DNA of 64,000 nucleotides from assembly GCA_000004985.1 (NCBI GenBank), contig GG738849.1; one strand, given 5' to 3'. Numbering within the stretch: the first letter of the stretch is position 1; every line of letters starts with the position of its first letter. The DNA comes from Naegleria gruberi. Its lineage: Eukaryota. Under the pieces are notes generated by a model. It was not told where the DNA came from and searched no databases. It worked only from the letters and a program-made list of their open reading frames with translations. Both the position numbers and the translations under genes were made by a program. Of the stretch, positions 4,932 through 58,027 are shown in pieces.

Positions 4932-7454
4932 TTAGAAAGTTTGTTGGTGATCTTCTGCAAATATGCCAATTTTTCTCTTTACTCTGTTTAATAGAGCCTC
5001 TTCAATAGAGCTTGTTCCATTGACATAAAGTTCTTCTACCCATAATATTTCATTTACCCAAGGAGAAATAATTTGATTGTCTATAAGATATTCCACAATT
5101 TCCAATATTTCCATCTCTAGTTTTTGATTAATGCTTACTCGGTAAAGAATTTGCAAATGTTGCACCAGTTTTGGAGCTAGTTCAGCCATATTTCTTCTGT
5201 CTATTAAACAAGTGGAAAAGGCGTTAACATATAATTCGTCTAACTTGTCAATATGAGTTGAACCTTGTTTAAAGTTAGTAAAGCATTCTATTGTTTCAAA
5301 CATAGCATTGATTGATTCATTCAAAATTACAAGAGATCTCTCACCACCATTAAGAGCAACATCGTTTCTAATAATCCTATTACATGCCCAAAAAGCTTGC
5401 GACATTTTATCCACGATTATATTAGGAATCCAAAGCATGTCATCTTCAAAATCTTCCATATCAGCAATCTCCTTAATAATTATTGGCAAAATGTAATCAT
5501 AGATAAAATCCTTCTTTCCTCCTTCATTGATAGAATTATTAGTCAACATGTCCATGGAGAGATGAGTGTGTAATATTCCAATTTCACTCAAAGTTCCAAG
5601 CAATGTGAATAGTGAATGATATTGTGTGTATGCAAATGGATCTCCAATCTTAATGAGAATTCGTATTAGATTGGCAAGAAATGAATAGGAGTGTTTGTTG
5701 AAAGCTTCAAGTAGAGCTTTTCTTTCTATCCATCTGCAAATTTCTATCAACACCACCGTAAGTGGCACAATCATTGAATTAAACAGTTCCTGTATGCTGT
5801 AGCTTGACATTTCTTCTGTCTTTTCCTTAATATAGGAAAGAAGTTTCTCACATAGTACATTATCATTAATTAATTGAAATGCGTTTCCGATTAAGAGGAG
5901 GCATTGATTAATATTCTTCTTATGTAGGTTTGTTTTTTCTTCCTCGTTTTCAACTGTTAAATATTCCATCGTTTCATTCACACACACAGTTTCGAATAAA
6001 TTGTTAATCTTGAATTTCAAACCTTCCAAAATTGATTCACTAATTTCTGATTTGCTAATATTCAGACTGTTAGTAATGCCTTTCAACAAGGCACAATAAT
6101 CTGTGATATCATTACTACTCAATTCATGAGATTTAATGATACAATCAAGTAAATCATCAGAATAATAATTAGTTTTTGAAAAGAAAAGACCAAGGGCCTT
6201 CTTGGTGACTAATCTTATATCCCTATTCTCAGAGGAGAGTAATTTCTTACAAATTTGAATAATTGCAGAGACTTGATTCTTAACATTTTGAGTTTCAATC
6301 GAAGATAAATCAATTAGAGAAATACTGTCGAGAGCTGTTATGATAGATCTTTTTGCCAATAAATCTCCACTCTCCAACTCACTCTGTTGTTGCAAAGTGT
6401 CAAATATGAAATCCTTAAAGAGAGCTGCTACGTAAGATTTGTTTTTAAAGGCAGAAGGATCTTGTTTACAATCATAGTTCAATATATTACTAATCATTCG
6501 TAATATTTTGTGTTTGATTACCCAAACAGTCTTTCCATAATTATTTCTAATTCTTGGAAATAAATTTTCAGATATAATGGTAGAATCATCTTTGGTGTTC
6601 TTGATTTGTGCCAAATCATTCTCCATCATATCTAGAATGCATTTTGCAAAATTAATTGACAAGTGAAACAATTTTCCAAGTAATGTGAATAATTTTTTTG
6701 TAACATTTGTCTTCTTCTTTGTAGAACTAGCCTCAGCAAAGTTATAGAGACAAAAAATGAAATATCGTGCCAGTAAAAGACCGAAAGCCTGATTTTTGTA
6801 ATAGTTTTTAGCCTTAAGTTCATAATCATCCTCTGTAGGTGTTGTTATATATTCAATAAATTGATTCCAATAATAAAAGAGATCGGTCAATAACCAACTA
6901 TTTGCTCCTGATAAATAACTTTCAGGATTTTCTTTCAACAATTGATTCTTTCTTTCCAAAAAGTAATTAGAAACCGTTAACAATAGAAAACATGGTGGAA
7001 ATTCAGTAAATCCGACATGTGAAATTGGTTTTCTACACTTTAAAACTTCAGCATGCACCTTTACAATAAAATGTAAAACAACTTTTTGCCAATTCTCCAA
7101 ATTATCAATTCCACATTCGAATGGTTCCACTTCGGCACCTTTCCTCACCTCTTGATAAATATGGTTTGCACAACGAAAGAATTGGGGTATAATTCTCTCC
7201 TCTGCATAATCCATAAATTGACAAAACTCTCTCACTTCACAATTCATCCAATTACACGAAATGGCTGTGGAAAGGTAGTAATAAATTAGAATAATCATTT
7301 TCATGCAAGCTTGTTGCTCAGTATCCGAATCATATACTTCCGAATATACTTTCAACTCATTTTCATCACACAACTTTCCTANNNNNNNNNNNNNNNNNNN
7401 NNNNNNNNNNNNNNNNNNNNNNNNNNNNNNNAAACACGATTTGTTACAAGACAA
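4932..7454 (-). CDS. Large alpha-helical protein of unknown function. At least 840 codons, single ORF. Extreme N-terminus interrupted by an assembly gap.
   Basis: Continuous 2.5-kb minus-strand ORF with coding-like composition. The N run at 7382..7431 lies 7 codons after the nominal start, so the real 5' end is undetermined. No confidently recognisable domain. Confidence 0.55.
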   Translation of the reverse strand: MSCNKSCXXXXXXXXXXXXXXXXXXGKLCDENELKVYSEVYDSDTEQQACMKMIILIYYYLSTAISCNWMNCEVREFCQFMDYAEERIIPQFFRCANHIYQEVRKGAEVEPFECGIDNLENWQKVVLHFIVKVHAEVLKCRKPISHVGFTEFPPCFLLLTVSNYFLERKNQLLKENPESYLSGANSWLLTDLFYYWNQFIEYITTPTEDDYELKAKNYYKNQAFGLLLARYFIFCLYNFAEASSTKKKTNVTKKLFTLLGKLFHLSINFAKCILDMMENDLAQIKNTKDDSTIISENLFPRIRNNYGKTVWVIKHKILRMISNILNYDCKQDPSAFKNKSYVAALFKDFIFDTLQQQSELESGDLLAKRSIITALDSISLIDLSSIETQNVKNQVSAIIQICKKLLSSENRDIRLVTKKALGLFFSKTNYYSDDLLDCIIKSHELSSNDITDYCALLKGITNSLNISKSEISESILEGLKFKINNLFETVCVNETMEYLTVENEEEKTNLHKKNINQCLLLIGNAFQLINDNVLCEKLLSYIKEKTEEMSSYSIQELFNSMIVPLTVVLIEICRWIERKALLEAFNKHSYSFLANLIRILIKIGDPFAYTQYHSLFTLLGTLSEIGILHTHLSMDMLTNNSINEGGKKDFIYDYILPIIIKEIADMEDFEDDMLWIPNIIVDKMSQAFWACNRIIRNDVALNGGERSLVILNESINAMFETIECFTNFKQGSTHIDKLDELYVNAFSTCLIDRRNMAELAPKLVQHLQILYRVSINQKLEMEILEIVEYLIDNQIISPWVNEILWVEELYVNGTSSIEEALLNRVKRKIGIFAEDHQQTF
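7382..7431. other. Assembly gap: 50 consecutive N.
   Basis: Literal n characters in the sequence. Interrupts the 5' end of the 4932..7454 CDS. Indicates a draft assembly, which is relevant to the apparent frameshift at ~56745. Confidence 0.99.
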
Positions 7455-7599: not shown

Positions 7600-10500
7600 T
7601 TATTTGGATAGGAGAGTTTCACAAATGTCTTGGTCAATTTGGTTATATTTCAACAAGACTTCTAAAATGAGAATAATCTTTTTTAGGGAAGGTCTTTGGT
7701 TAGGATTCAGTCTTGTCATTTGTTGGAGGAGACCAATTAAGAGTTGTTCATTTTGATGTGAACAGTAGTAAAAGGATTTTTTTAACTTTTCCATATTTGG
7801 TGTAGTATTTAAGGAAGTTTCATTGGATGCATTGAATGGAGTTGAGGAGGAAGGGTTGATTCTTTCAGAGCTTGGAGGAGAAGCCAAGAGAGAGGAAGCA
7901 GACATTGGAGAACTTGTTTCAGAGCTTGAAATTTTGACGAAACCATCCGAATGGTGATTAATGGAAGAATTGTTGGAAGGATTATGAAGTCTTGGAGAGA
8001 TTAAGTGAGGAATAGCTTCACTCTTCAATAAACTCATGTGAATTTTGGAAGCCATGATTTGATGAGTGAGTTTTTCATCTCTTGAGATTGCTTCCTCAAT
8101 CGAAACATATTCGAAATTTGTTGCATTGGTTTGAATAGTTGCACTTTCTAAATTATTTCCAACAGTAGTATTAGAAGAAGATGCAATACCATCTGTTTGT
8201 CCAGTACCATTCAGCAATTCTTGATGGTCAACTTCCTTCTTAATTATTACAGTTGTAGTTGAGGTTGGAGACGAAACTGTTGAATTATCTGAACTTTCAC
8301 CATGTTGATGCAAATTAGACAACCTAATAAATGATTCCTTTGTAATGAGTTGATAAAAAACACATCCCAATCTGAAAATATCATCCTTCTCATCCAAATA
8401 TCTTTCAATATCACCATCAAAATTTAACTTTTCTTGATTATTGACATTGGATGACATTATTTCACGCAATACCATTTGTTTTCTTAAAGTAGAATGATTA
8501 GTACTTGAAGTGGTTGATGTTGGTGTTGTAGATCTAATAGTAGACCATTCATTTGAGTGTTGCTTGTTGTGATATTGTTCCATCACTTGTCTGTTTTTAA
8601 ATTGGACAGTTCCATCAAGGATTGAAAAATCCCAAGGTTTAAACCAATCAGTGAGTTTCACATTGAGATTTGACTTGTGTTGATCACCCAATAATGTATC
8701 ATTCTCATCAAATGCCTTAATAATTACTGATTTCAATTCTTGTTGCTTTGCTTCTGACAAACTATTCGAAACACTATTATCAAACAATAACAAATCAGCC
8801 TTAAAATCACTACCAGCAGGTGTTACACACGACTGAGTCGATCTAAAACTTGAATCTTTCTCTTCATTATAATTCATCAAAATCTTTTCCAATTTCAATG
8901 AAGGAAAAACAATCGAATTCTGATGCAAATGTGAAAGACCTTTCGTTGACTGCAAACAAACATCAATCAACTCTAAATAATTCATGAATCGATGATTTCT
9001 AATCATAAATTCAACTCTCTTCTCCAAATTGGAACCATTCATATAGGGAAGTTCAATGAAAATTTCAAATCGTTCAGATCTACATCTTCTAATGGTATAA
9101 TCAGAGAATGTCATGACATTTGGATGTTTTGGAAATAGTATCATGGACTCGACACCTTTACCAACTTCTGTTAAATCTGATTTTGTGAAATTTGTCAAAT
9201 GTTTCAAAGCACAGAGTGAGCTTGTCTTGACTTTGACAGATTTGTAAATTTTAGAGTGGTGATTGGAGAAAATTCTCTTCAGAATTAGATATCTATTACC
9301 AAGTACATGAGGTCTAATTCTTCTCTCAAAACCATAACAGTCAATTGGGGAAGTGACATGTTGGAGAAGGAATTTCATTAACATTTCAACTTCATTTCCT
9401 CTCTTGAGATGAATCTTCTTCTCCATCCAATCTACCATTCTAATTACTTGATCTTCAACCAATTCTTCCAAACTTGCATATTCTTTCACTTTCTTTTTCA
9501 CACTTTCGAATAAATTCTTCAAATTTAAAATGAAATTCCATTCATCCTCCAAAGAAACCATAAAAGTTCCATCATATAACTGTTGATTCTGTTCAGAATA
9601 TAATTGTTTAGCAAATGTAGCAATGAAAATTGCAAAAATCAATCTCTCATTAATTTCCCTCTGATAATTTTCATCACTTTTTGTAAACATCATTTGGAGA
9701 ATATTCTTCTTTTTGAGTGGAATGTCAAATAGGAAGGAGAGAATTTGTTGTTCATTGTGTGGAGTTACTTTTTGTTTGAGTTTGAGTTTGACATTTCTAA
9801 AATCAAATCTTTTCAAACAAATTTCAATAACTGGACAAGTGACTTGATAAGATTCAAAATGATCGACTAGGAATTCAACTTGTGCAAGTTCCCTTTCATC
9901 ATTAATTGGTGTATTCAAACAATAACCATGAACATTCAAATTAGTAAAAAGTGCCTTGACAGAATTCATCACAATATTATACGAATCTTGATTTGGTGGA
10001 ATGTAATTTTCAATTATGACTGCTTGCTCACCACTCTTCTCAGATCCACTCCAACTACTCCCCAATTGACCTGTCAAATATTGTGCATTAGTCAATTGTT
10101 GTGGTTTCACTGCACTATACCTCAAATTACCTCCTTGAACAATTTCTCTCAACAAGTCATGAAAAATTTCCTTAACTTTTTGTTGAATTAAACTTTTTGG
10201 TTCATCACTATTCATTTCAATGAATGGAACGTAATAGTAGAGTGATTTTTTTAATCCTTCACGTTTGGAAACTTGTCTTTCTTTACCATTTTGAGAAGTT
10301 ACAAAGATGGAGGAGGATGAGGAATTGGATCGAAGTGAGGTTGAGTGATGTTTGTTGTTGGTTGTGTTTGATAGGATGGTTGTTGAATTATTGTTATTAT
10401 TCCAGTATTTGGTGGCACTGGAAAGTGAAACAATTGAGGCTTTTCTTGAGGAATCGGATAGATCGGCATTGTCTTGCATCAATTGACCACTTGTACTTGT

Positions 10501-11886
10501 TGAACTCTTGAGATTCATTAAACTTGTAGCTGTCAATGGAGATGGTTGATTAGTGATTGGTGTTGTGGTTGAATTCTGTTGTTGTTGTAATAGGAGACTT
10601 GTTGTGGAAGGTGGTGAACCAGCATTACTCTTATTACTATACTCAATTCCAACAAGAACCATTGAAATGGTACCTCCCTCTTTAGCTCTATAAAGCTTTT
10701 CGTATAGAATGTCAACTTGTTGGAAACTTCTACGACTTGCAACATTGTAAACTATGAGAAAACCATCACATTCTTTGAGACATTGATCCATCATGTTGAC
10801 AAATTGCTCATAGATGTCATAAAAGAAGAGTTCTAATTGGTAGGGTTTTCCACCAAAATCGAATTGTTTCTTCATAACGGTTTCGTCAGAGTTGGTTGAC
10901 CTTTTGACTTCTTCTTGCAAGAATTCAGCTGCAATGAGAGAATCTGATAAATCTTCACCTAGAATGGCGATTTTGTAAACTGGATATTGTTCAGCTGTTT
11001 TGGTGACTTCTACAATAGCAGAAGATGGTCGAGGAGATTCTTCTGGTTCAGTTTTGGTTTCTCCCTCATCATTCTTATAGAAACCAAACCATTTCTGGTA
11101 GAAACTCAATTCCTTCTTAATTTCCAACTTGATTGGCTCTTCATGAGTTGTGGCTGTTTCTTCAATTTTCACTTCACTTTCGTTCGTAGGATTACTATTA
11201 GAAACCAGCATTGGAGGTGGTGGAGGCTGTTGAACATTCGAATCTTGATAAACATCTTCCAGTTTAATCAAATCATCATCTCTAGAACTAATTGCATGTC
11301 TTCTAAGATCTTCTCCATCTTGTTCTTGCTCATCTTCACTTTCATCTTCGACATTATTCTTTGATTGAATGTTAATATTGGCAGATGTAGTATTACTTGT
11401 CAATGGTTTACCAAAATCAATAATATCCTCATCATCAATCTTGAATTTAGTCAATTGAACACTGTCTCTACTCGTTTTAGTTTCTAGTGTTGCAGTTGAC
11501 TTGTTACCTTGTTTCTTATTCTTTTTCTTTTGAAAAGTTGTTGCACCACCAGCACCACTAACCACATCAGTTGAACTATTAGCTTTATGAATATATCGAG
11601 AGAGAAAGTTATTCTTCTTTGATTTCAATTCCTTCTCAAATTGAGATGTATCATGAACAGTTGGAGAACTTTCCATTGGAAGAGTTTTACGAGTCAATTG
11701 TTTGCCTGAATTGTTCTGCAGCTGTTGATCATCCTCTTCTTCTTCTTCAGAGGAGTAGGCTGAATTTGAAGATGAAGTCTCTTCCTGTTCATCACCAGAT
11801 TCAATGAGAATGATTTCTTCCTCAGCAAGTATTGAAGACATTTTTTCTTTTGAATATATCTGAATTGGAAAATCTTTCAACAACAT
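7600..11886 (-). CDS. Roco-like giant protein (1428 aa, single exon). Acidic/Ser-rich N-terminus, degenerate Ras/Roc-like GTPase domain, COR-like middle, degenerate protein-kinase domain.
   Basis: GTPase-like block KIAILGEDLSDSLIAAEF…LELFFYDIYEQF…GFLIVYNVASRRSFQQVDILYEKL…MVLVGIEYS aligns to Ras G1-G4 but lacks the P-loop GxxxxGK[ST], the DxxG and the NKxD. Kinase-like block LGNRYLILKRI…LCALKHL…FPSLKLEKILM (HRD-loop Asp replaced)…KLTDWFKPWDF…DDIFRLGCVFYQLITKE. Stop TAA at 7602..7600. Confidence 0.7.
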   Translation of the reverse strand: MLLKDFPIQIYSKEKMSSILAEEEIILIESGDEQEETSSSNSAYSSEEEEEDDQQLQNNSGKQLTRKTLPMESSPTVHDTSQFEKELKSKKNNFLSRYIHKANSSTDVVSGAGGATTFQKKKNKKQGNKSTATLETKTSRDSVQLTKFKIDDEDIIDFGKPLTSNTTSANINIQSKNNVEDESEDEQEQDGEDLRRHAISSRDDDLIKLEDVYQDSNVQQPPPPPMLVSNSNPTNESEVKIEETATTHEEPIKLEIKKELSFYQKWFGFYKNDEGETKTEPEESPRPSSAIVEVTKTAEQYPVYKIAILGEDLSDSLIAAEFLQEEVKRSTNSDETVMKKQFDFGGKPYQLELFFYDIYEQFVNMMDQCLKECDGFLIVYNVASRRSFQQVDILYEKLYRAKEGGTISMVLVGIEYSNKSNAGSPPSTTSLLLQQQQNSTTTPITNQPSPLTATSLMNLKSSTSTSGQLMQDNADLSDSSRKASIVSLSSATKYWNNNNNSTTILSNTTNNKHHSTSLRSNSSSSSIFVTSQNGKERQVSKREGLKKSLYYYVPFIEMNSDEPKSLIQQKVKEIFHDLLREIVQGGNLRYSAVKPQQLTNAQYLTGQLGSSWSGSEKSGEQAVIIENYIPPNQDSYNIVMNSVKALFTNLNVHGYCLNTPINDERELAQVEFLVDHFESYQVTCPVIEICLKRFDFRNVKLKLKQKVTPHNEQQILSFLFDIPLKKKNILQMMFTKSDENYQREINERLIFAIFIATFAKQLYSEQNQQLYDGTFMVSLEDEWNFILNLKNLFESVKKKVKEYASLEELVEDQVIRMVDWMEKKIHLKRGNEVEMLMKFLLQHVTSPIDCYGFERRIRPHVLGNRYLILKRIFSNHHSKIYKSVKVKTSSLCALKHLTNFTKSDLTEVGKGVESMILFPKHPNVMTFSDYTIRRCRSERFEIFIELPYMNGSNLEKRVEFMIRNHRFMNYLELIDVCLQSTKGLSHLHQNSIVFPSLKLEKILMNYNEEKDSSFRSTQSCVTPAGSDFKADLLLFDNSVSNSLSEAKQQELKSVIIKAFDENDTLLGDQHKSNLNVKLTDWFKPWDFSILDGTVQFKNRQVMEQYHNKQHSNEWSTIRSTTPTSTTSSTNHSTLRKQMVLREIMSSNVNNQEKLNFDGDIERYLDEKDDIFRLGCVFYQLITKESFIRLSNLHQHGESSDNSTVSSPTSTTTVIIKKEVDHQELLNGTGQTDGIASSSNTTVGNNLESATIQTNATNFEYVSIEEAISRDEKLTHQIMASKIHMSLLKSEAIPHLISPRLHNPSNNSSINHHSDGFVKISSSETSSPMSASSLLASPPSSERINPSSSTPFNASNETSLNTTPNMEKLKKSFYYCSHQNEQLLIGLLQQMTRLNPNQRPSLKKIILILEVLLKYNQIDQDICETLLSK

Positions 11887-25908: not shown

Positions 25909-28900
25909 ATGATTGATCCATCTCAAAATTCAGAGTTAGAAACCTCTTTTAATTTACTTGATCAAGAAGAAAAGGAATTAATTGAACCTCATTATCACTT
26001 TATCCAAAGATCATCAGATTGGATTGAATTAATTCATAACAAAAAACCTCTCAACAATATGCCTCATCGGAACATGTATAATGACACTCCAAGTGATACC
26101 AGCTCAAATAATATAACTCCAAGTAATGCCAATAATGATGATTCACCAGACGTTACACCACTTCATATTTATCTAACCACCCACAAACATGGTCACCACA
26201 TGATTCATGCAAAGAAGGATCAACCATTTGCTCCATCCTTTTTAAATGATGCTGGCTATGAGAGTGGCAGTTCCTCAAATGACGATGATACTGCTCCATC
26301 GAGTGCCTGCGATGAAGTCACTCCAGCCATAACTACTCCTGTTCACTTTCTAACAGAACAACATCATCCCTATTCACCTACCACAATTAACAAATCTTCC
26401 TCAACTAAAGAGTTTCCAACAAGTCACAATCCAGATAATGTACAAAAGTAAGTTTTCCCTTTTTGTTCAATGGAACTAAATTTTCTTGTGATTTGATCAT
26501 TATTTGAAATTTAGAAAAAGGTCTCGAGTTGCTTCTTTACCAGTTACAAATCAACAAGAGAAACTTGTCACAAATAATAATAGCAAAGCAAATCATCCTA
26601 CTATTACTACCAACGATAATAATACTCCTTCTACCACCTCTACCACTTCTCAAACACCTCCAACAAATATTAATAATCCAACTGCTGGTATTCATCATAT
26701 TCAAAGCCAGCCAAACATGCTTTCCAATCAACCAATATCTCTTCTTTCTCAATCATTATTAAAACAAAGTGATGAACATGACTTTTATATGGTCAACGAG
26801 GAAGAAGTTACAAGTGCTTCTGCACTTATTGGAAAACAAAAATATTATAGCGAGGTTAATTTACCAAGTATGGACGTTTCTCCTCTCAAATCGAATGGTC
26901 AATCAATGAAAAAACCAATCATCAAACATAATATTGGAAAACATCACCCAGAAGGAACAGAATCTTGGCTTTTACCAGGGGAATGTGTTCTTAATCATAT
27001 TAAAAAGGTTGGAGTCGTTAAAAATCTCCCAATTACATACTTTCCTCCAACTCATTCCAACCCACAAGCAATTTCATCTCAAGGACCTTTTATTGAGCAA
27101 CCAAAACAAGCTTCTGGAGAATTTTTAACAACAGCAGAGGAATTATTGAATGATTTTAATGTTTATGACTTATTGAATACAGTAGGCGGATCTAGCTCAA
27201 ATTATGGAAGTGCTGGAAGTACTATTAGCACTAATGGTAATGCTACTTCCACTAATGTTGGTGATCAATCTGATACTGAGCCTACTCTTGTTATTGGCGA
27301 GTTATATATTACAAATTATCAAATTAGATTCCAAGTAAGTTTCTCAATTTTTTTTAGTTATTTTAACAATTAAATAGTGCGTTGCTAAACCATCTCTAGT
27401 TCTATCAACTCCAACATCTTGTATTCTTAGAATGGCTCCAAAATATCCACAATCAGAGACAAATACCTACAGCAACTATTACAGTCAATATATTTCATCA
27501 AATGCAAATAATGGACCTACCACTGATAACAAGTTTAATAGTCTTGGATATATTAGTATTAAGAGCAAAGATTTGCAGGTTTTGAAATTTTTATTCTTTA
27601 GAGATTCTTCCTATACAATTGACAAAGTTATGGAGGCCCTTAAAGCTGCTACCTCAAAGAGAGTGTTTGCATTTGCATTCCGTAAACATATTTCCTCCTA
27701 TCCAATTCAAATATATTCTCAGGAGGATATTGAAAAGGGATGGAAGGTTTACAAGATGAAAAGAGAATTTAAAAGACAAGGCCTTTTCACAAGACACCAA
27801 AATAATCCAGCTTTTTCTTGGCGTATTAGTTCTATTAACTCAAAATTCAAAGTTTGTGACACTTATCCAGAACATTTTATTGTTCCTAAAGATGTTTCAG
27901 ATGAAATGCTTGCAGCTTCAGCAGCTTTTAGAAGTAAAGGAAGAATTCCAGTTCTTTCCTGGATTCATCCTCATAAGAATATTTGCATTGTAAGATCGAG
28001 TCAACCTATGGTAGGTATCACAAGAGCAAGATGTAAAGAAGATGAAGAGTTAGTTGATGCCATCAGAAGAGCATCTGGATCAGAGAGACTTCAGATTATT
28101 GACTGTAGACCAAAGGCAAACGCTTGGGCCAATACAGTTATGGGAAAGGGTTATGAAAATATTGCATACTATACTAACTGTTCAATAGAGTTCATGAATA
28201 TTGAAAATATTCATGCCATGACTAACAGTCTTAATTTGCTAAAGAAATTAATTCAAAATAAGCAAAATAACGATCAATATTGGCTATCTTCTTTTGAGGC
28301 AACAGGATGGTTAAAACATACCAAGTTAATCATGCAAGCAGCTTCAAAGGTTGTAACTTATATTGAAAGATTTGATACATCAGTACTTGTTCACTGTAGT
28401 GATGGATGGGATCGTACCGCACAAATCTGCGCACTTGCAGAGCTTTTATTAGACCCTTATTACAGAACTATTAAGGGATTTGAAATTCTAATTGAGAGAG
28501 AGTGGGTTTCTTTTGGTCACAAGTTTCTAGATCGTGTAGGACATGGATGTGTTGGAAAAACTAATTCAGCCTCTGATGAAATTTCTCCTGTTTTTTTACA
28601 ATTTATTGATTGTGTTTGGCAAATTTGGCAACAATATCCTTCACATTTCGAGTTTAATGAGGCGTTCCTCTTCTTAATATTGGACAGTTTATATTCTTGT
28701 CGTTTTGGAAACTTTTTATTGAATTGTGCTAAACAACAGCTCGATGAAAATATTACAAAGGATACTATTTCGGTTTGGACAGAAGTAATGACAAACCCTT
28801 CTCTGTATTATAACGATGTTTATAACCCAAAGAATAGCGAATATTCAACATTAATTGTAAATACCGACATTGACACACTCTCCACACACTTTTGGATAAG

Positions 28901-29240
28901 CTACTTTTATCGATACAAGAAGGGTTCAAAGAACAGATATCACAGAATGCTCAAAAAGGCTATCACCAAGATGAAGAAGGAAAATGCAATTCTCTTGAAT
29001 TCTTTACAAGAGGAACTGTTGACAAGGAAGAGAATTGAGCTAGAGTTGGCCCAATCCAAACAAAAAATCAAATTTCTCGAAGGTCATAATTCATTAACTG
29101 ATGAATCCCACATAAGTGATTCGTATGGAAGTCATCCTGCTTCTGACACTTTAAGTTACAATGGTGAAGATGGAGACACGAAAGTTATTCGCTTCTCAAC
29201 CAGTGTGAAAGAAAATCTGGTGGAAAATTACTTTAAGTAA
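25909..29240 (+). CDS. Myotubularin-family phosphoinositide 3-phosphatase (active CX5R site) with a long low-complexity N-terminal region. Three exons: 25909..26447, 26515..27334, 27378..29240.
   Basis: Catalytic loop VLVHCSDGWDRTAQ (C-x5-R) with upstream RPKANAWANTVMGKGYEN and …SWIHP… Introns of 67 nt (GTAAGT…TTAG) and 43 nt (GTAAGT…ATAG). The ATG at 25909 follows an in-frame TGA. Exon lengths are phase-consistent. Confidence 0.8.
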
Positions 29241-50457: not shown

Positions 50458-50560
50458 ATTACACTATTTCACTTCTACAAATTAGACCAATATTGTATTT
50501 CGTAATTATGAGGTGTGCTGATTAGAATTGAAAATTCAAAACATTTTAAAGAAGAAAAAA

Positions 50561-52735
50561 ATGTCTGCACTTGATAGGTTCACCTCTCCAAGTACTGCAA
50601 CGAGATTCGAATTTGATGCCTATTATCATGCTAAAAGTTTTCTCTCCTCACCATTTACTCTGTTCCTTAAAAATAGATCTTGCTCGTATTATCATCCCGA
50701 AATTAATTGCACAGAGCTGAATAAGATCTTATCCTTTGGCAGTAATCATGCCAAGTTTGGCCAATGGATAACATGGAAAGATTTAAAGCTTAAAACTAGT
50801 CATTGTGAGGAGGAGATTTTACTTGTTGATTATTTTGCAAATAATTTAACATTACCAACTGCTGTTGTGGATAGTAATGTAACAGAGATCATGGTTCAAC
50901 ACTTGAAGGAGTTGGATGGTGCAGTTCTTGTTTGTGAATTTAGCGTTGAGAAGACTGATGCAGAGTTTGATGTATGCTTGTCATTCTTTCAAGTAGATGC
51001 CACAATATTGAAACGTATCAGCTCTTCATTCCAAATAGTTCAAGATCTGTTCAAATATGAAGAGTACGGTAGATGTGGACTTATTTTTGAGCTATTGGAT
51101 GAGTATTTTGTAGATGTACTTTTTTCTATTGATGGAATTGAGTGGAATATCATTAACAGAGGAAGTGACTGGAAATTAATTCAAAAAGATCCAAGCCAAT
51201 ACATTTTTGTGACTCCAAAGTTAGAAAGTGAAAGGGAGTACTTTTTCAAACTTGTGGTCATTTCAAAGAGAAATACGTGGATATATCATGACTTGGGTCA
51301 ATTATATCCAGAATCAGTACTTTCTTCAGGTCTGTTGCCCTCATTGGTCAATGAAAATGTAAAACATATTGTTGATGGTTGTGTCCTTGCTTCAACTCAT
51401 CCAAACATGTTCCACCTTAAATTTGATAATTATCCACTCTTTCACCTAGGTTGCTCAATTGTAAAATCCCCAGCGTTCCATAATGAATTGAATTCAGCGT
51501 TGCAAGTTGTAGTAGAAGCAAGTGCTATTAAGAAATATGAAGAACCATTGTGGAAAGAAATAACTCCAGTTGGGCATGAACTAAACTCTGAACAATTGAA
51601 ATCATCAGCTATAGATACAAAAGCAAGTTACAAAGCACGATTGTTTATTGCTTGTAAGTTTGATCGTTTCAGAATTGGAAATATTACACCAAAAAGCAAC
51701 CCAGTGACCATTCCGAGTTCATTAATGATGTGGAATGAGATACCACATGTAGGCGAACTCTCTATGGTTCATGATACATTCCTTAAATTAACTTCAAAGA
51801 CACCAATATTTTTCGTCTTCCTTCCACAAGATGCCTATTCCAAGTTATACAATTTTACAATTCAAGCAAGGTTAAAAAGGTCAAATAATGAATCAGATTG
51901 GGTCACTTTAGATACTGAACCTGCAGTTACTGGATTCCATTTAAAAATGCAAGGCAATGTTGTAAAATGCTCAGCTAAATCCCATCAATTATTAGAGTAT
52001 GGAAAAATATACTCTGTTAGAATAATGGCAAGCTATAACAATTGCAGACCTATTATTGTAAAGGAATTTTCAAAGACCATTCCCAAGTTTAATTATATTC
52101 CTAATCTCACAACTGATATTTTGGAAAGAAACGGAGGAATGTTGATTTTCAATACTGAAAGTTATTATATTTATTTAATGTTGGATGGCACTATTATAAT
52201 AGTTGATCCAACTGTAAAATATCAGTGGAATGATACTAGAATGTTTGTTGGAACCTTTAGATTTTGTGATTTGTTGGATGAAAATGTAATGAGACCATTC
52301 TTCCTCCAATCATTTGCTACTATTAATGATGAAATGGTGGATGAAGTAATTGACACATCAAAATGGCAATTGATTACTCGTGTGGAAGCAACAATTGACC
52401 ATCATCCAACCCACAATCTTAGACTTCCAAAAGAAACTTTTAATTATTACTTTGATATTATTTTCGATCACGAATTGAAGAAATACCAACTCGTAGATAA
52501 ATCCGAGCTCTTTGGTGATGTACATCGAGTAGTTAGTGTCAAATGGAGAAATGAAGAGCTTTCCAATGCCATTATAATGGATTATTACTCTCATTCTAGT
52601 CAATTAGATCAACGGAGAATATGTGGGGTCAATCACGAGAATGAATATCCTCAAAGAGCAATTCAATGGTATTCTGATTTTTATATACAAAATAGAATAC
52701 AATTTAGTGATATGACTTTTGATTTTACAAATTAG
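50561..52735 (+). CDS. Hypothetical protein, ~724 aa from the first ATG, single exon. No recognised domain (orphan).
   Basis: First ATG at 50561 (MSALDR…). The ORF-track start at 50528 is TTG. Continuous ORF, not low-complexity. Its 3' end overlaps the convergent 52725..55393 gene by ~11 nt. Confidence 0.5.
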   Translation: MSALDRFTSPSTATRFEFDAYYHAKSFLSSPFTLFLKNRSCSYYHPEINCTELNKILSFGSNHAKFGQWITWKDLKLKTSHCEEEILLVDYFANNLTLPTAVVDSNVTEIMVQHLKELDGAVLVCEFSVEKTDAEFDVCLSFFQVDATILKRISSSFQIVQDLFKYEEYGRCGLIFELLDEYFVDVLFSIDGIEWNIINRGSDWKLIQKDPSQYIFVTPKLESEREYFFKLVVISKRNTWIYHDLGQLYPESVLSSGLLPSLVNENVKHIVDGCVLASTHPNMFHLKFDNYPLFHLGCSIVKSPAFHNELNSALQVVVEASAIKKYEEPLWKEITPVGHELNSEQLKSSAIDTKASYKARLFIACKFDRFRIGNITPKSNPVTIPSSLMMWNEIPHVGELSMVHDTFLKLTSKTPIFFVFLPQDAYSKLYNFTIQARLKRSNNESDWVTLDTEPAVTGFHLKMQGNVVKCSAKSHQLLEYGKIYSVRIMASYNNCRPIIVKEFSKTIPKFNYIPNLTTDILERNGGMLIFNTESYYIYLMLDGTIIIVDPTVKYQWNDTRMFVGTFRFCDLLDENVMRPFFLQSFATINDEMVDEVIDTSKWQLITRVEATIDHHPTHNLRLPKETFNYYFDIIFDHELKKYQLVDKSELFGDVHRVVSVKWRNEELSNAIIMDYYSHSSQLDQRRICGVNHENEYPQRAIQWYSDFYIQNRIQFSDMTFDFTN

Positions 52736-55393
52736 ATGGTTTGGTATCTTTAGAGATGCGATCTTGGCACTTTTCAATCATATGAGCACATGGCTTATCT
52801 TCAACACCTTCTGTTTTCTCAATATGAATGGATTGATATTGTTCAAAATATTCAAGGGCCTCATTAAAGTGACCTTGTTTAAAGCTTTCAATTCCCTTAT
52901 TGTAAATTCTCCACTTGTCCACTTGCTCTTTTTGCTGCAATTCATACATCCCTAAGTAATTATGATATTCACAAATGAAAAAACAATATCAACTTACATT
53001 CATCCATGTTAACTTGTTTTGAATCTCCAACCTCATAAATTGGTGTCTTTTCACCACTCTTTGATTTTCTATTGGACATAATTGGTTCAAATGTATTTTC
53101 ATTCACTAATTTCTTCCATGATACCAATCTAGTCGAGTGAACATCAGCAATTTCCTGGTAAACATGATCTGTGATTAAAAAGTTAACATTAAGCTTGGAA
53201 GTTAAACTGATTAAAAATTCAAGATTTTCTTGATAACTGCCTAAAATTGAGAAGGTTTTAACATCTCTAGTACCAACGTTACCAACTTTGTTTTGCTGTG
53301 AAACCATGGCACAAAGGAAAGATATGGATGAAGAACATTTCAATTTTTGTAATTGACCTTGAAGTTGTGTCATGCAGAATAAACCTTTTTCTTCTGCTTT
53401 GGCGCTTTCTGATGTAGCATTAAAACTAAGAATGATGGTACTCTTCTCAAAATTGCCAACCAATGCATTGTTTAAACTTGCATGTCTTTGAATTACTGTG
53501 AAAATTTCAGTAAGCACGACAGTAATATCATGTTCTTTCAATTCATTAAGTAGTTCGTTGAGCCCTTCGAAATATATCATTGCACTCACCACCCTTCTCT
53601 TTTCCAGACCTAATTTAAAAATGGAATTATGAAAACCAGAAGAATGAGCTCCAATCTTGCTATGATGAGATGACTTTGAGAAGGAAAGAGATGTAAACTT
53701 GTTACTCGAATGATGTTTAGATTCTTCGTGTGAACGTGTGTCATTACTATCCAATTTGCTCAACAAGTGAGGTGGAAGGAAACTTCTAAATAATTTCATC
53801 TTTTTCACCATGAACAATACATGTTCTTGGATTTCAGAAACTTCCTTCAATGGTGATGCAACCTTCAAGCCCTCAATTTCGTCCAATTGCATTTCTGAAA
53901 TGAATTCAAATTGGGTCATTAACTTTTTGAAAGGTGTAACAATTCTTGTACTGAACCAAATACCTATCAAAATTGCAGAGATTGTAATAATGACACTCAC
54001 AATAACGGCAACTATCACTGCAATTACAATGGAAGATATGTAGTTCCACTGTGGCACTGCAAAGATTATCATCCAATTCAACAATGTTGGAGTGCACAAT
54101 CTATAGAGTCCAACATAATAAGAACTAACTGTTGTGAATTTGAAAGTTGAACATTTCATAGATTTGAGATCATTCCCTAAAGATTCATAAACAGCAGATC
54201 CAATATCTCTCACTTGTGGAATATCAAAGTTCTTAACAGTCTTTCTTGTTTCCTTTCCACTTTTATCCCATTCAGAAACTGGAATATCAGGGTAGTTGGC
54301 TAATTATTATTGAAACAGTTTAAAACAGGAATATTAAAAAAACATACTTGCAATAATAGCGTCAGTTTTGATCTCAATAACAACTGCCAGTGAGTTCATA
54401 ATATCACTTGTAAATTCAAGCAAGTATTGGGATAGAGAGTGAACTGTCAGATCAATAGCAAAATACCAATCAAAAGTGGATGAGCCAGGAACTGAGTGAA
54501 CACTTACACATGAGAACCAAACCCACAGTGGATATCCTGAATCTGTGTAAGAGTCAGAAAATCCGGTTGAGTTGAGTAAGTTTTGGGCTTGTTCCACTTC
54601 AGTTGAAAGATCAAATGTTGGTTTAATCTTATCCCATGTTGGACCTTTTCTAACACAGCTAGTGTGAGAGGAGTCAAAATCACAAGTTTTGTAATAAGCT
54701 CCTGTTGAATTAATCACAAATAATGATAGATACATTTCAGGTGATTTAGCAGCTCTAGATTGACTGCTAGTTATACCCTTATTACCTCCCAATACATCTC
54801 CAAAATATGAATTGATGAAAAGACCATTTATGTAAGCTTCCTGTGATTTATAGGTCATGAAGGTCTTGTCAATTAACCACTCGTCACGATTATAATAATC
54901 CATATCATTCCACACAGAGTTCCTTACAGTTTCAGTGGCCATTGCTACCTGTTGTTAGGAATTTCCACATGTTTGTCAATTTTACACTAAATTCAAACCG
55001 TCAACAACAAACCTTATTCATGGTAGAGTCTATAAATTCAGTCATACTAGAGAATTGAGACTCCATTAAACTATTACTCACAGATGTAACACTCCCAGCA
55101 AAACTAGATACCCAAACTATGGTTAATAAGATTACAGAAACCACCAAAACAAACAATAATAAGAGTATTAAGCTTGATTTGATGGTTATTTTCTGAGAGG
55201 AACGCTTATTTTGTTGTTTGATTTGAGCACCATCATCTGACGAATTATCATCAATTATTGGTTCCAAAGGAGAAACAGCACTAATAGTAAATCCATCATT
55301 TGATTCGGTAAGGTGATTTTTGGATGTTGGTGTCCTATTTGTTGTATATACAGATACATGTGGGGGCAATGGTGTAACCTTAGAAGCGACCAT
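52725..55393 (-). CDS. Receptor-like protein. Cytoplasmic N-terminus, TM1, ~330-aa extracellular sensor-like domain, TM2, degenerate class-III nucleotidyl-cyclase homology domain, C-terminal TPR-like tail. Four exons: 55393..55013, 54948..54348, 54299..52998, 52951..52725.
   Basis: TM1 LILLLLFVLVVSVILLTIVWV and TM2 IVIAVIVAVIVSVIITISAILIGIWF. CHD-like region RRVVSAMIYFEGLNEL…ALVGNFEKSTIILSF…FLCAMVSQQNKVGNVGTRDVKTFSILGSYQENLEFLISLTSKLNVNFLITDHVYQEI follows the β1 / β2-β3 / αD-β7 pattern (FxDIxGFT → YFEGLNEL, GD → GN, GDTVNxASR → GSYQENLEF). Introns of 64, 48 and 46 nt, all GT-AG, phase-checked. Last exon …MYELQQKEQVDKWRIYNKGIESFKQGHFNEALEYFEQYQ… (TPR-like). Confidence 0.6.
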
Positions 55394-55880: not shown

Positions 55881-58027
55881 TTATTGCATGGAACAAGTCT
55901 TCTTTTCACTATTCTTTACAACTTGCTTAAATGAAGGATCATTCCACACACAGATGGACTTGACCATCACTTCGTTCAGCTCCCTGATTCCAGTACCTTT
56001 CAGAGCGCTTGTTTCGGCAAGTAATTTTCCCTGTTCAAAACTTTGAATCTTTTTATGTTTTTTGATAAGTAATTCTCTGGTAAAGATTGGATCATCTCTA
56101 AAATCAATTTTGGTGCAAACAAGTGCAATTGGAGTTGTTGAACAATGATGCCTTAGTTCATTATCCATAGATGATTCTGAACAACAACTGAAACTCAAAA
56201 AGAATAAATCAGTTTGGGGATAAGAAAGTGGACGTAATCTGTGTATGATAGATAAATTCATTAAGTTCCAAAATTTAACAATATTATTGCTTTTTGATAA
56301 ATAAATAACTTCCCTAGGGAAGAAGGATAAATTACAGCACGCAGGGGGAGAAGTTCTTTTGCTTCCTTCCACATCATAGCCAACATTCAACCCAAAACAA
56401 CATCTGTCATTTACTTGAAGTTGTTGGTACATTGAAGAACAAGTGGTAATTGATACTTTGAACACCCTGTTTTTCTCTTGGTCTAATAAAGACTTGTATT
56501 GTTAATAAACTTCTATCTATAATAAATCATGAAAAAAAATCATACAACACCCTCAGTTGGTAGGAGGGGGTTTAAGACGGCCAAAAAGTGTAATTTATCC
56601 TTCTTCCCTTACCTATCAAAATCTTTTGAAAGGTCAATCAAAAATGTTTTGAATATTTTTTAAAATTACTAACCTTCTTGTCCTATGGTATCCCACAATC
56701 CAATACTTAAAGTTTTTCCATCATAGAAAAAATTGTATTGCTATCAAAAATTGTTGGTATATATTCGTGTGGAAAGGAATCGGTAGTTAGAGATATCCAA
56801 AGACATGTTTTACCCACAGCTCCATCACCTTATTTAAAATAATTAATTGGCATTCAATATTGAATAATAAATGATGACACTCACCAACTTGAACAATTTT
56901 AAAAGAATTTGCTGAACTGTTTTTCAAATTGTACTTGAGAATTTCTTCTTTAGGAACGTAGATATCACTTCCACATTGTGACAAACCCTCAATATAACTG
57001 GTTCTATTATGGTGATCTCTGTTGGCTCATTAACTTGCTTCTTTTTGTCAATCTTGTGATAAGTACCACCAAATACAAAGTAATTCATAGCAATACTATC
57101 ATCTTCATTGGTCGCTTGGAATGGAACAGTTGTATGAAAGACGGGTCCAACATCTTGGCTTGTAAAAGTTTGAGAAAGTGAGTGAGTGTGGCTTACATCC
57201 CAACCATTCTTGATATTAATTAAATCAATATAGATACAATCCAAATGGTCAATTCTATCATTACAACCTCCAATGGAGTAAAGTCTTTTACCATTTTCTG
57301 ATTTTTCCAACACCAATGAATGACCAAATCTTGGAGCAAAGCCATCAAGTTCAGAAATTAATACCTCCGATTGACAAGTACCCTCTTTCACATCCAGAGT
57401 AGACAATTTAATCTTTACAAAATCTTTAACAAGATCAGTAGCCGATTTACCACCCAAAATATACCAATCACCAGTTTCTTCATCCAAAACACTAGCATGA
57501 TAATATCTTCCCATAAGTTCAATGCTCAATTCCATCAATTTCCATTCTCTACTCTTCAAATTGAAAATAAACAATTCATTCGATGGGAAACTGTTGTTAT
57601 CATCATACCCACCAAACACAACCAAATAATCACCATAAATAGTTGCTGATTGACCATAACGTGGAGTGATAATCTCATCACCACTAGGCTCCAGTAATCC
57701 CCACTCAAAAGTATCAAATCGATACGACCAAACATCATTATGAAAACCATTTGATTTCCCGCCAAAAATTACCATCTCATCACTACAATCATTCGATTTT
57801 CTTTTCACTAGACACGAGGAGTGGAAGTTACGAGCACTTGGTCCCCTATTATGTATTGTCTTGTTTTCCCACTTTTGTGAGGAAACATCCACTTGAATGA
57901 GATCGTTTACAAGTAGTTCGGAATTGACAAAGCCTCCGAAAAGATAAACTTTATCGTTATGAAAGATACCACTGTGACCAACACGAGAGGTTAATTGACC
58001 GAGGGGCAACGAAGATGTTAATAACAT
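55881..58027 (-). CDS. Putative fusion gene: N-terminal Kelch beta-propeller (~347 aa) plus a C-terminal Rho/Rac-family small GTPase with a CAAX box (CSMQ). Five exons: 58027..56987, 56933..56885, 56828..56674, 56622..56613 (10-nt microexon), 56238..55881. Exon 3 carries an apparent 1-nt frameshift.
   Basis: Kelch ORF from ATG 58027 (…VYLFGGF…DVWSYRF…LVVFGGY…WYILGG…LYSIGG…). The Rho-frame segment upstream of the G1 exon has no ATG between an in-frame TAA and the GTGAGT donor, so it cannot initiate on its own. A 53-nt GTTTGT…AAG intron joins …EPVILR to [17 protein letters not shown]|DGAVGKTCL… Then GQE|DFD|[11 protein letters not shown] via the microexon ATTTTGATAG (introns of 51 and 374 nt). 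Downstream …[10 protein letters not shown]…ETSALKG…CSMQ*. Rho exon 3 is 155 nt where phase requires 156. See the finding on the frameshift. Confidence 0.5.

Follow-up and report, generated by a model that had tools for sequence, protein, structure and literature searches.

A Naegleria gruberi receptor-like protein couples a dCache-like ectodomain to a degenerate class III cyclase domain and is probably a pseudo-cyclase

The amoeba Naegleria gruberi NEG-M carries, at positions 52725-55393 on the minus strand of the 64,000-nucleotide stretch of contig GG738849.1 that we analysed (the window), a four-exon gene for a receptor-like protein of 836 amino acids (aa); these coordinates are exactly those of the coding sequence (CDS), from start to stop. 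From the N terminus, the protein consists of a tail, a first transmembrane segment (TM1), an ectodomain of ~315 aa, a second transmembrane segment (TM2), a HAMP-like linker, a segment resembling the cyclase transducer element (CTE), a disordered insert of ~45 aa, a class III cyclase homology domain (CHD) and, at the C terminus, the motif DEWMYEL with one tetratricopeptide repeat (TPR)-like unit. Both metal-binding aspartates of the CHD are replaced, as are its substrate-binding lysine and transition-state arginine. We consider the protein to be, more probably than not, a receptor pseudo-cyclase: a dCache sensor joined to a cyclase-like domain that is dead, which would signal without cyclic nucleotides and have scaffolding or dimerization as its output. 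An initial annotation of the same DNA had proposed a two-transmembrane sandwich with a Cache-like extracellular domain, a class III CHD and a single TPR-like tail, and all four of these architectural claims hold.

Results

Direct searches of Pfam and PDB sequences with the protein returned a weak TPR match and no cyclase, Cache or HAMP domain. With hmmscan, neither the 836-aa protein nor exon 3 matched PF00211 (Guanylate_cyc) at a reporting threshold of E ≤ 10, despite which the HMMER filters drop most matches above about 0.1, and phmmer with the query found no cyclase in PDB. We searched and modelled exons 2 and 3 as separate pieces. An exhaustive phmmer search with exon 3 alone recovered 393 homologues at E ≤ 1e-3, 41 of them at E ≤ 1e-30 and the best at 38% identity; the sequence is therefore no chance feature. 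Named members of the family include the N. gruberi proteins EFC46301, EFC46793 and EFC43585, all deposited as 'predicted protein', together with proteins of N. lovaniensis, N. fowleri and Willaertia magna, and those of N. lovaniensis are called 'Guanylate cyclase domain-containing protein' in UniProt. The more distant part of the family was found on eukaryotic metagenome contigs and in the diplonemid Rhynchopus. When members were scanned against Pfam, Guanylate_cyc turned up in 6 of the 48 close ones, at best with E 2.9e-4, and in 24 of the 59 distant ones, at best with E 2.5e-10; some of the latter also have dCache_1, NIT, PA or ankyrin domains.

A lack of CHD hits by profile methods had been named in the initial annotation as grounds for abandoning its class III assignment; such hits were looked for and were found. 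A profile of the close family matched, in PDB, CyaB (E 4.8e-13), Cya2 (E 4.6e-11), CyaC (E 4e-10) and the photoactivated cyclases bPAC/OaPAC (E ~5e-8). Aligned by hhalign with nine canonical relatives, the family gave a probability of 99.9 and an E value of 3.7e-31, in one continuous alignment that runs from TM2 through the HAMP-like region, F.P..LL and the CHD to the tail. The AlphaFold model of exon 3 had a predicted local distance difference test score (pLDDT) of 86.5 overall, which within the CHD rose above 90 in most blocks of 10 residues, and a Foldseek comparison with this model returned CyaB, Cya2, CyaC, RhGC and Rv1625c (best E 9e-13, ~1e-12; template modelling scores of 0.7-0.82, normalised to the target). 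Family profile, hhalign and Foldseek thus all bear out a class III CHD, and on the basis of profile, model and residue mapping we place this degenerate, class IIIb-like domain at aa 557-755 (53017-53613; this and all other parts of the gene lie on the minus strand).

We mapped the catalytic positions using two HMMER alignments (to CyaB and to Cya2) and the hhalign alignment, which were concordant over the first half of the site. The metal-binding aspartate of strand beta1 (F-x-D-I-x-G-F-T) falls on Y570, within AMIYFEGLN; the substrate lysine falls on N610; and the second metal-binding aspartate (K-x-x-G-D) falls on S614, within GNFEKS. As an internal control, the canonical relatives P0131 and P0133 read D, (G)FT, K, GD and T in the same hmmalign columns. 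The Thr/Asp position is occupied by S678. At GDxVNxASR, the ungapped register preferred by hhalign places E685 at the Asn and F689 at the Arg, and the HMMER alignment to CyaB, which contains a one-residue insertion, places N686 and L690 there. The transition-state arginine is therefore absent under both registers, and the identity of the Asn position depends on the register.

The initial annotation had read the two metal positions as Glu and Asn. The strings that it quoted are all present (YFEGLNEL at aa 570-577, VGNFE at 608-612 and GSYQENLEF at 681-689), and neither metal position is indeed an aspartate in any of the three alignments, but the residues that it named are not the metal-site residues. 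E572 lies two residues after the first metal site, N610 lies four residues before the second and corresponds to the substrate lysine, and both candidates were rejected by the HMMER and hhalign alignments. Its equation of GSYQENLEF with GDTVNxASR agrees with the ungapped register of hhalign; HMMER prefers the one-residue insertion, which keeps N686. Of the two options that it had left for the domain, the alignments favour catalytic impairment, with both Asp, the Lys and the Arg replaced, and give no support to a cyclase variant that would use Glu and Asn at the metal sites.

These replacements extend across the family. Among 39 close representatives, which come from Naegleria and Willaertia, the first metal position is never Asp (Y in 14, H in 11, F in 5, L in 5 and other residues in 4). 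The lysine is kept in 1 of 38, and the second metal position is Asp in 17 of 38 and varies otherwise (D, N, E, G and S occur within the family). The arginine is kept in 0 of 35 in the gapped register or 3 of 35 in the ungapped one. At the class IIIb Thr position, 20 of 35 close relatives have T and 8 have S; the majority residue is thus class IIIb-like. An Asp at the first metal site was present in only 4 of 141 alignable homologues, none of which has the DEW tail. Mutational work on canonical class III cyclases provides the ground on which we infer that the CHD is catalytically inactive: with both Asp, the Lys and the Arg lost, a homodimer would be unable to cyclise ATP or GTP, and the domain could not act as a canonical C2-like half either.

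An orthologue is present on a 2.4-kb contig from a soil or water metagenome (L001, run ERR1078381), where it matches the gene over all exons at 45-65% identity. Its metal positions are likewise Tyr and Ser, it shares the loop deletion, and one of its introns coincides in position with intron 3. Where 35 of 38 relatives have the His of '..H(E)EKA', neither protein does (A629 here), and both lack the conserved K-W loop that follows helix alpha2, which is lost between aa 648 and 649 (window ~53341-53397, together with aa 629). Having lost both of these family features, the N. gruberi protein and its orthologue form a divergent sub-branch of the putative pseudo-cyclase family.

We then considered the segments that join the membrane to the CHD. 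In the model, TM2 (~aa 412-443; 53953-54048; hydropathy peak 3.15) runs as an unbroken helix into the linker, and what follows is a helix, a loop and a helix (exon-3 residues 87-134 and 151-172). Model helices and profile alignment delimit this helix-connector-helix region at aa 444-499 (53785-53952). Across relatives, P450 is nearly invariant and E480 is invariant; HAMP domains, of about 50 aa, characteristically have a Pro in AS1 and a Glu where AS2 starts. A profile of the region (alignment A6) aligned in register with HAMP domains at E values below significance (range 0.05-0.8; NarQ 0.05, Af1503 0.5), and the Pfam HAMP model was found in two relatives only and missed in the query. On this evidence we describe the segment after TM2 as HAMP-like. 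It is followed by SFLPPHLLSKLD (aa 500-512; 53746-53784; P503 invariant), which we take to be the counterpart of the CTE known from class IIIa/b cyclases. In hhalign, the segment after the HAMP-like region, FRSFLPPHLLSKLD, with its invariant Pro, aligned with F.RYVP..LV of the canonical relatives, and over 79 sequences the Pro is invariant and F-x-P nearly so. Between the CTE-like segment and strand beta1 lies a Ser/His/Lys-rich insert that is specific to the family (~aa 513-556; 53614-53745). It measures ~45 aa here and 40-70 aa in the family, corresponds to a 49-column gap in the canonical relatives (hhalign), and is disordered in the AlphaFold model (pLDDT <50 at exon-3 residues 195-222).

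The C-terminal tail (aa 760-836; 52728-53004) consists of DEWMYEL, which is split by intron 3, one TPR-like helix pair (~aa 774-807; 52815-52916) and a capping helix with a conserved D and C. The E, the W and the second E of DEWMYEL are invariant in an alignment of 41 tails (A7). A profile of the family tail matched the SRP72 TPR (E 6e-7), YbgF (E 2.7e-5) and consensus TPRs, which agrees with the single TPR-like tail of the initial annotation; the query tail alone matched TPR_1 at E 2.3e-4 and 21.3 bits, under the Pfam cut-off of 27.8, as one repeat with no array, whereas TPRs of 34 aa usually come in arrays of at least three. Canonical bacterial-type relatives have a homologous tail, and on this evidence the tail is ancestral to this cyclase lineage, with DEWMYEL an addition of the eukaryotic family itself. 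Catalytically complete cyclases linked to CHASE2, Cache or GAF domains (alignment A8: P0133, P0131 and P0153-P0158) end in Y..F..A...F...L...D....RC, and among the tail-bearing cyclases of that alignment are a protein of a verrucomicrobial bacterium and a protein of Rozella. The TPR-like tail seems to be a widespread, little-noted appendage of class IIIb-type cyclases.

Hydropathy revealed only two segments hydrophobic enough to span a membrane, TM2 and TM1 (~aa 73-97; 55103-55177; hydropathy peak 3.48). Clusters of Lys and Arg lie N-terminal of TM1 (KQQNKRSSQKITIK) and C-terminal of TM2 (STRIVTPFKK) and thus fit a topology in which both termini are inside and a loop of ~315 aa is outside, in agreement with the sandwich originally proposed. 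The N-terminal tail (aa 1-72; 55178-55393), a low-complexity sequence of which the first of these clusters forms the K/R-rich end, would accordingly be cytoplasmic.

The ectodomain (aa 98-411; 54049-55102) spans introns 1 and 2, contains 5 Cys and 44 aromatic residues, and aligns over its full length with paralogues, in which four of the cysteines (C216, C225, C377 and C396) are conserved or invariant. It had no match in a direct Pfam scan of the query, including to dCache_1, and a 16-sequence profile (A4) found no PDB sequence at E ≤ 10; dCache_1 was matched in four distant relatives only. The Cache fold became visible through fold comparison alone. The AlphaFold model of exon 2 (aa 128-327) had a pLDDT of 85.6 and a predicted template modelling score of 0.83, and its top 20 Foldseek matches were all dCache ligand-binding domains, at marginal E values (≥1.4e-3). 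The domain has the placement of a dCache domain, outside the cytoplasm and between two transmembrane segments, and shares with such domains a long helix at the N-terminal side and a PAS-like module distal to the membrane. The last 85 ectodomain residues, with which the exon-3 model opens, fold as beta-beta-alpha-beta-beta-beta directly ahead of TM2 and may represent the membrane-proximal PDC module that a dCache domain would have. We conclude from the models that the ectodomain is dCache-like, and the earlier suggestion of a Cache-like extracellular domain is upheld, with a loop of ~315 aa. The motif of amino-acid-binding dCache domains (R-x-W-Y ... Y ... D) was absent from the distal module when inspected by eye, and we therefore propose no ligand.

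The four exons (55393-55013, 54948-54348, 54299-52998 and 52951-52725) are separated by three GT..AG introns, namely intron 1 (54949-55012; 64 nt, phase 0), intron 2 (54300-54347; 48 nt, phase 1) and intron 3 (52952-52997; 46 nt, phase 1). The public counterpart of the gene is NAEGRDRAFT_63107 (EFC49112.1, XP_002681856.1, UniProt D2V2T0), a 'predicted protein' of 770 aa. It comprises exons 1-3, with the same junctions at introns 1 and 2, and continues into unspliced intron 3 to end in ...NMDECKLILFFHL (...DECKLILFFHL); introns 1 and 2 are therefore confirmed, and the last exon is missing from the public model. Splicing of intron 3 restores ...NMDE-W-MYELQQKE..., and with it the DEWMYEL motif. 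Because this recreates the motif with its invariant E, W and second E and the environmental orthologue shares the intron position, the four-exon model of the initial annotation is, as far as sequence can tell, better than the public one. MYELQQ and GHFNEALEYFEQYQ, also quoted there, are located in exon 4. The 90%-identity cluster that holds EFC49112.1 is represented by a 202-aa fragment of exon 2 (P0169; Logan/ENA assembly), which hid the public protein from both exon-3 homologue searches. A word-indexed homologue search returned 0 matches with the spliced protein and 8 with the family profile.

The window has a G+C content of ~33%, and two of its intron-less open reading frames (ORFs) are identical to the N. 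gruberi NEG-M proteins EFC48943.1 (MTAP) and EFC48950.1. The receptor CDS overlaps, tail to tail and by 11 nt (52725-52735), a convergent ORF of 735 aa with no Pfam match (50528-52735, plus strand). A Ras-family small GTPase fragment (55881-56465, minus strand) lies just upstream of the start of the receptor gene; neighbouring genes encode a Kelch-repeat beta-propeller protein (56924-58027, minus strand) and a myotubularin-like phosphatase (27432-29240, plus strand), and a functional link of these three to the receptor is not evident. Elsewhere in the window, an ORF of 1428 aa (7600-11886, minus strand) combines a Ras domain (Pfam E 2.4e-9) with a Pkinase domain (E 3.1e-10) in a ROCO-like arrangement, and an assembly gap of 50 N (7382-7431) falls within a long ORF (4932-7454, minus strand).

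Discussion

We propose that this protein would act as a dimeric transmembrane receptor of bacterial type, with an extracellular dCache domain that binds a small ligand. The signal would pass from TM2 through the HAMP-like four-helix module and the cyclase transducer element to the cytoplasmic CHD, and the sequence suggests that this chain from sensor to CHD has been retained. The receptor itself would synthesise no cyclic nucleotide. Its dead CHD might have been kept as a ligand-controlled module for dimerization and scaffolding, which is a conjecture and the weakest step of the proposal. We favour protein-protein contact as the output because the catalytic positions vary while the Pro and Glu of the HAMP-like region, the Pro of the CTE, DEWMYEL and the ectodomain cysteines are fixed. 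Such contact could be made through DEWMYEL and the TPR-like tail, the most conserved element of the family, or, again as a conjecture, through pairing with catalytically competent cyclase paralogues, which would thereby be silenced.

Several observations weigh against a receptor of this kind. With its ~45 aa, the disordered insert between CTE and CHD could break the coupling between sensor and CHD. The Asn found in 33 of 35 family members in the gapped register may be a retained catalytic Asn, with residual nucleotide binding as a possible consequence, and the acidic residues E572 and E612 adjoin the lost metal sites (as located by alignment only). In the orthologue contig L001 the reading frame shifts by +1 within the HAMP connector (L001 ~1100-1135), and in L002, a Logan assembly of the same run (ERR1078381), the cyclase domain is also interrupted by an in-frame stop. 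These defects could stem from errors of sequencing or assembly or from differences between strains, or the gene could be a pseudogene in that organism, and L001 lends weak, qualified support to continued purifying selection.

Four other explanations appear to us less likely than a receptor pseudo-cyclase. The protein could be the complementary, non-metal half of a heterodimeric cyclase, like mammalian C2 or the beta subunit of soluble guanylyl cyclase (sGC), with an Asp-bearing paralogue completing an active enzyme under ligand control. Naegleria has many candidate partners, with at least 81 cyclases in the pangenome (PMC9928731); both metal Asp are missing, as they are in C2 domains; the gapped alignment keeps the Asn noted above; and the position that contacts adenine in class IIIb still has a Thr or Ser (S678 in this protein and T in 20 of 35 relatives). 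Such a half must, however, bring the Lys and the Arg, which read N610 and F689 or L690 in this protein and are lost throughout the close family. Moreover, tblastn found no paralogue within the 64-kb window, and among the best 150 homologues no relative with the DEW tail has an Asp at the first metal site, so that we regard this arrangement as unlikely. We are similarly doubtful that the degenerate pocket serves as a non-catalytic sensor of ATP, GTP or a cyclic nucleotide, integrating it with the extracellular ligand. A GN.GT...K.F...GS...NL block is conserved at the canonical purine/ribose site (G, N and G invariant, K in 35 and N in 34 of 36), and degenerate sites of other cyclases do bind ligands, as with forskolin in mammalian adenylate cyclase (AC); yet most residues of the block are structural in canonical domains too, CyaB shares GN.G, and the residues that bind phosphate and metal are gone.

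The idea that the domain is an active but unorthodox cyclase can be restated with E572 and E612 in place of the canonical aspartates, and E or D does occupy the E612 column in 37 and the E572 column in 28 of 39 close relatives. Both residues lie off the metal positions in all three alignments, however, the Lys and the Arg are missing too, and the second Asp position varies freely (D, N, E, G, S), as expected once catalysis has been lost. An active class III cyclase in which both aspartates are missing is not known to us, and we give this form of the idea very little credence. We give as little to the view that the gene is a decaying or non-functional copy within a large paralogous family. The query does depart from the family consensus, with A629 in place of His (35 of 38) and the K-W loop deleted, and the orthologue contains the frameshift described above, with the in-frame stop as well in one of its assemblies. 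Its four exons are nevertheless open and its splice sites canonical, and the HAMP, CTE, DEWMYEL and TPR-like positions and the four ectodomain cysteines are intact. The orthologue also shows the same peculiarities (the Y, the S and the loop deletion) at 45-65% identity, which argues that these features are old and have been retained.

The receptor pseudo-cyclase that we favour can be compared with several known systems. Its order of parts as assigned here (TM, dCache, TM, HAMP, CTE, CHD and TPR-like tail) is also that of the bacterial-type dCache/CHASE2-HAMP-class IIIb adenylate cyclases and of the copies of these in eukaryotes. The likeness extends to the profile-profile match from HAMP to tail (E 3.7e-31), the Thr/Ser at the IIIb adenine position and the tail pattern Y..F..A...F...L...D....C; the N. 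gruberi protein differs from them in the replacement of both metal Asp, the Lys and the Arg, in the insert of 40-70 aa and in having DEWMYEL ahead of the tail. Pseudomonas aeruginosa CyaB and Synechocystis Cya2 (PDB 3r5g and 2w01), the best profile and fold matches (Foldseek E ~1e-12, template modelling scores of 0.71-0.78), are active homodimers with a full Asp/Asp/Lys(Glu)/Thr/Asn/Arg set, other sensor domains and no DEWMYEL tail. Mammalian AC C2 and sGC beta1 share with our protein a cyclase fold that lacks both metal Asp. In them, the active site of the partner is still completed by Lys/Glu, Asp/Cys, Asn and Arg, whereas here the Lys and the Arg are gone, which would make the canonical partner role impossible. 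Dictyostelium ACG and the trypanosomatid receptor adenylate cyclases, with which the initial annotation had compared the protein, are also protist receptors that have a sensor outside the cell and a class III domain inside it, and they are active and have other ectodomains. The closest canonical relatives that we found are bacterial-type.

A TM-Cache1-HAMP-NCIII subfamily is on record for Euglena and N. gruberi (PMC6366073), a single Naegleria protein with a Pfam-detectable Cache domain has been described, an adenylate cyclase (PMC4822843), and Naegleria genomes have been credited with ~80-100 adenylate/guanylate cyclases, described as their chief means of sensing the environment (PMC9928731). 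In the literature on pseudo-cyclases and on Naegleria Cache and HAMP proteins we found no description of the clade-wide catalytic degeneracy of this family, its insert or DEWMYEL. From the alignments, we read the Naegleria and Willaertia relatives as a heterolobosean clade of receptor pseudo-cyclases that would derive from bacterial-type dCache-HAMP-class IIIb cyclases. A broader version, which we offer tentatively and would not yet bet on, is that the vahlkampfiid amoebae (Naegleria and Willaertia), and possibly other Discoba, possess a large clade of dCache-HAMP receptors in which the CHD is dead throughout and the output, free of cyclic nucleotides, runs through the DEWMYEL/TPR-like tail or through the silencing of active paralogues.

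dCache-like ectodomains are thus present in Naegleria and are too divergent for standard Pfam models, and the element that the family conserves best is missing from the public N. gruberi gene model, because the last intron was left unspliced there. The family is also found in the pathogen N. fowleri, in which receptor-type surface proteins are of practical interest. If a sizeable subfamily is dead, cyclase counts in Naegleria would overstate the capacity to produce cAMP and cGMP and would hide a class of receptor pseudoenzymes. Should the broader clade reading prove true, these proteins would represent a new mode of output for bacterial-type, chemoreceptor-like sensors in eukaryotes.

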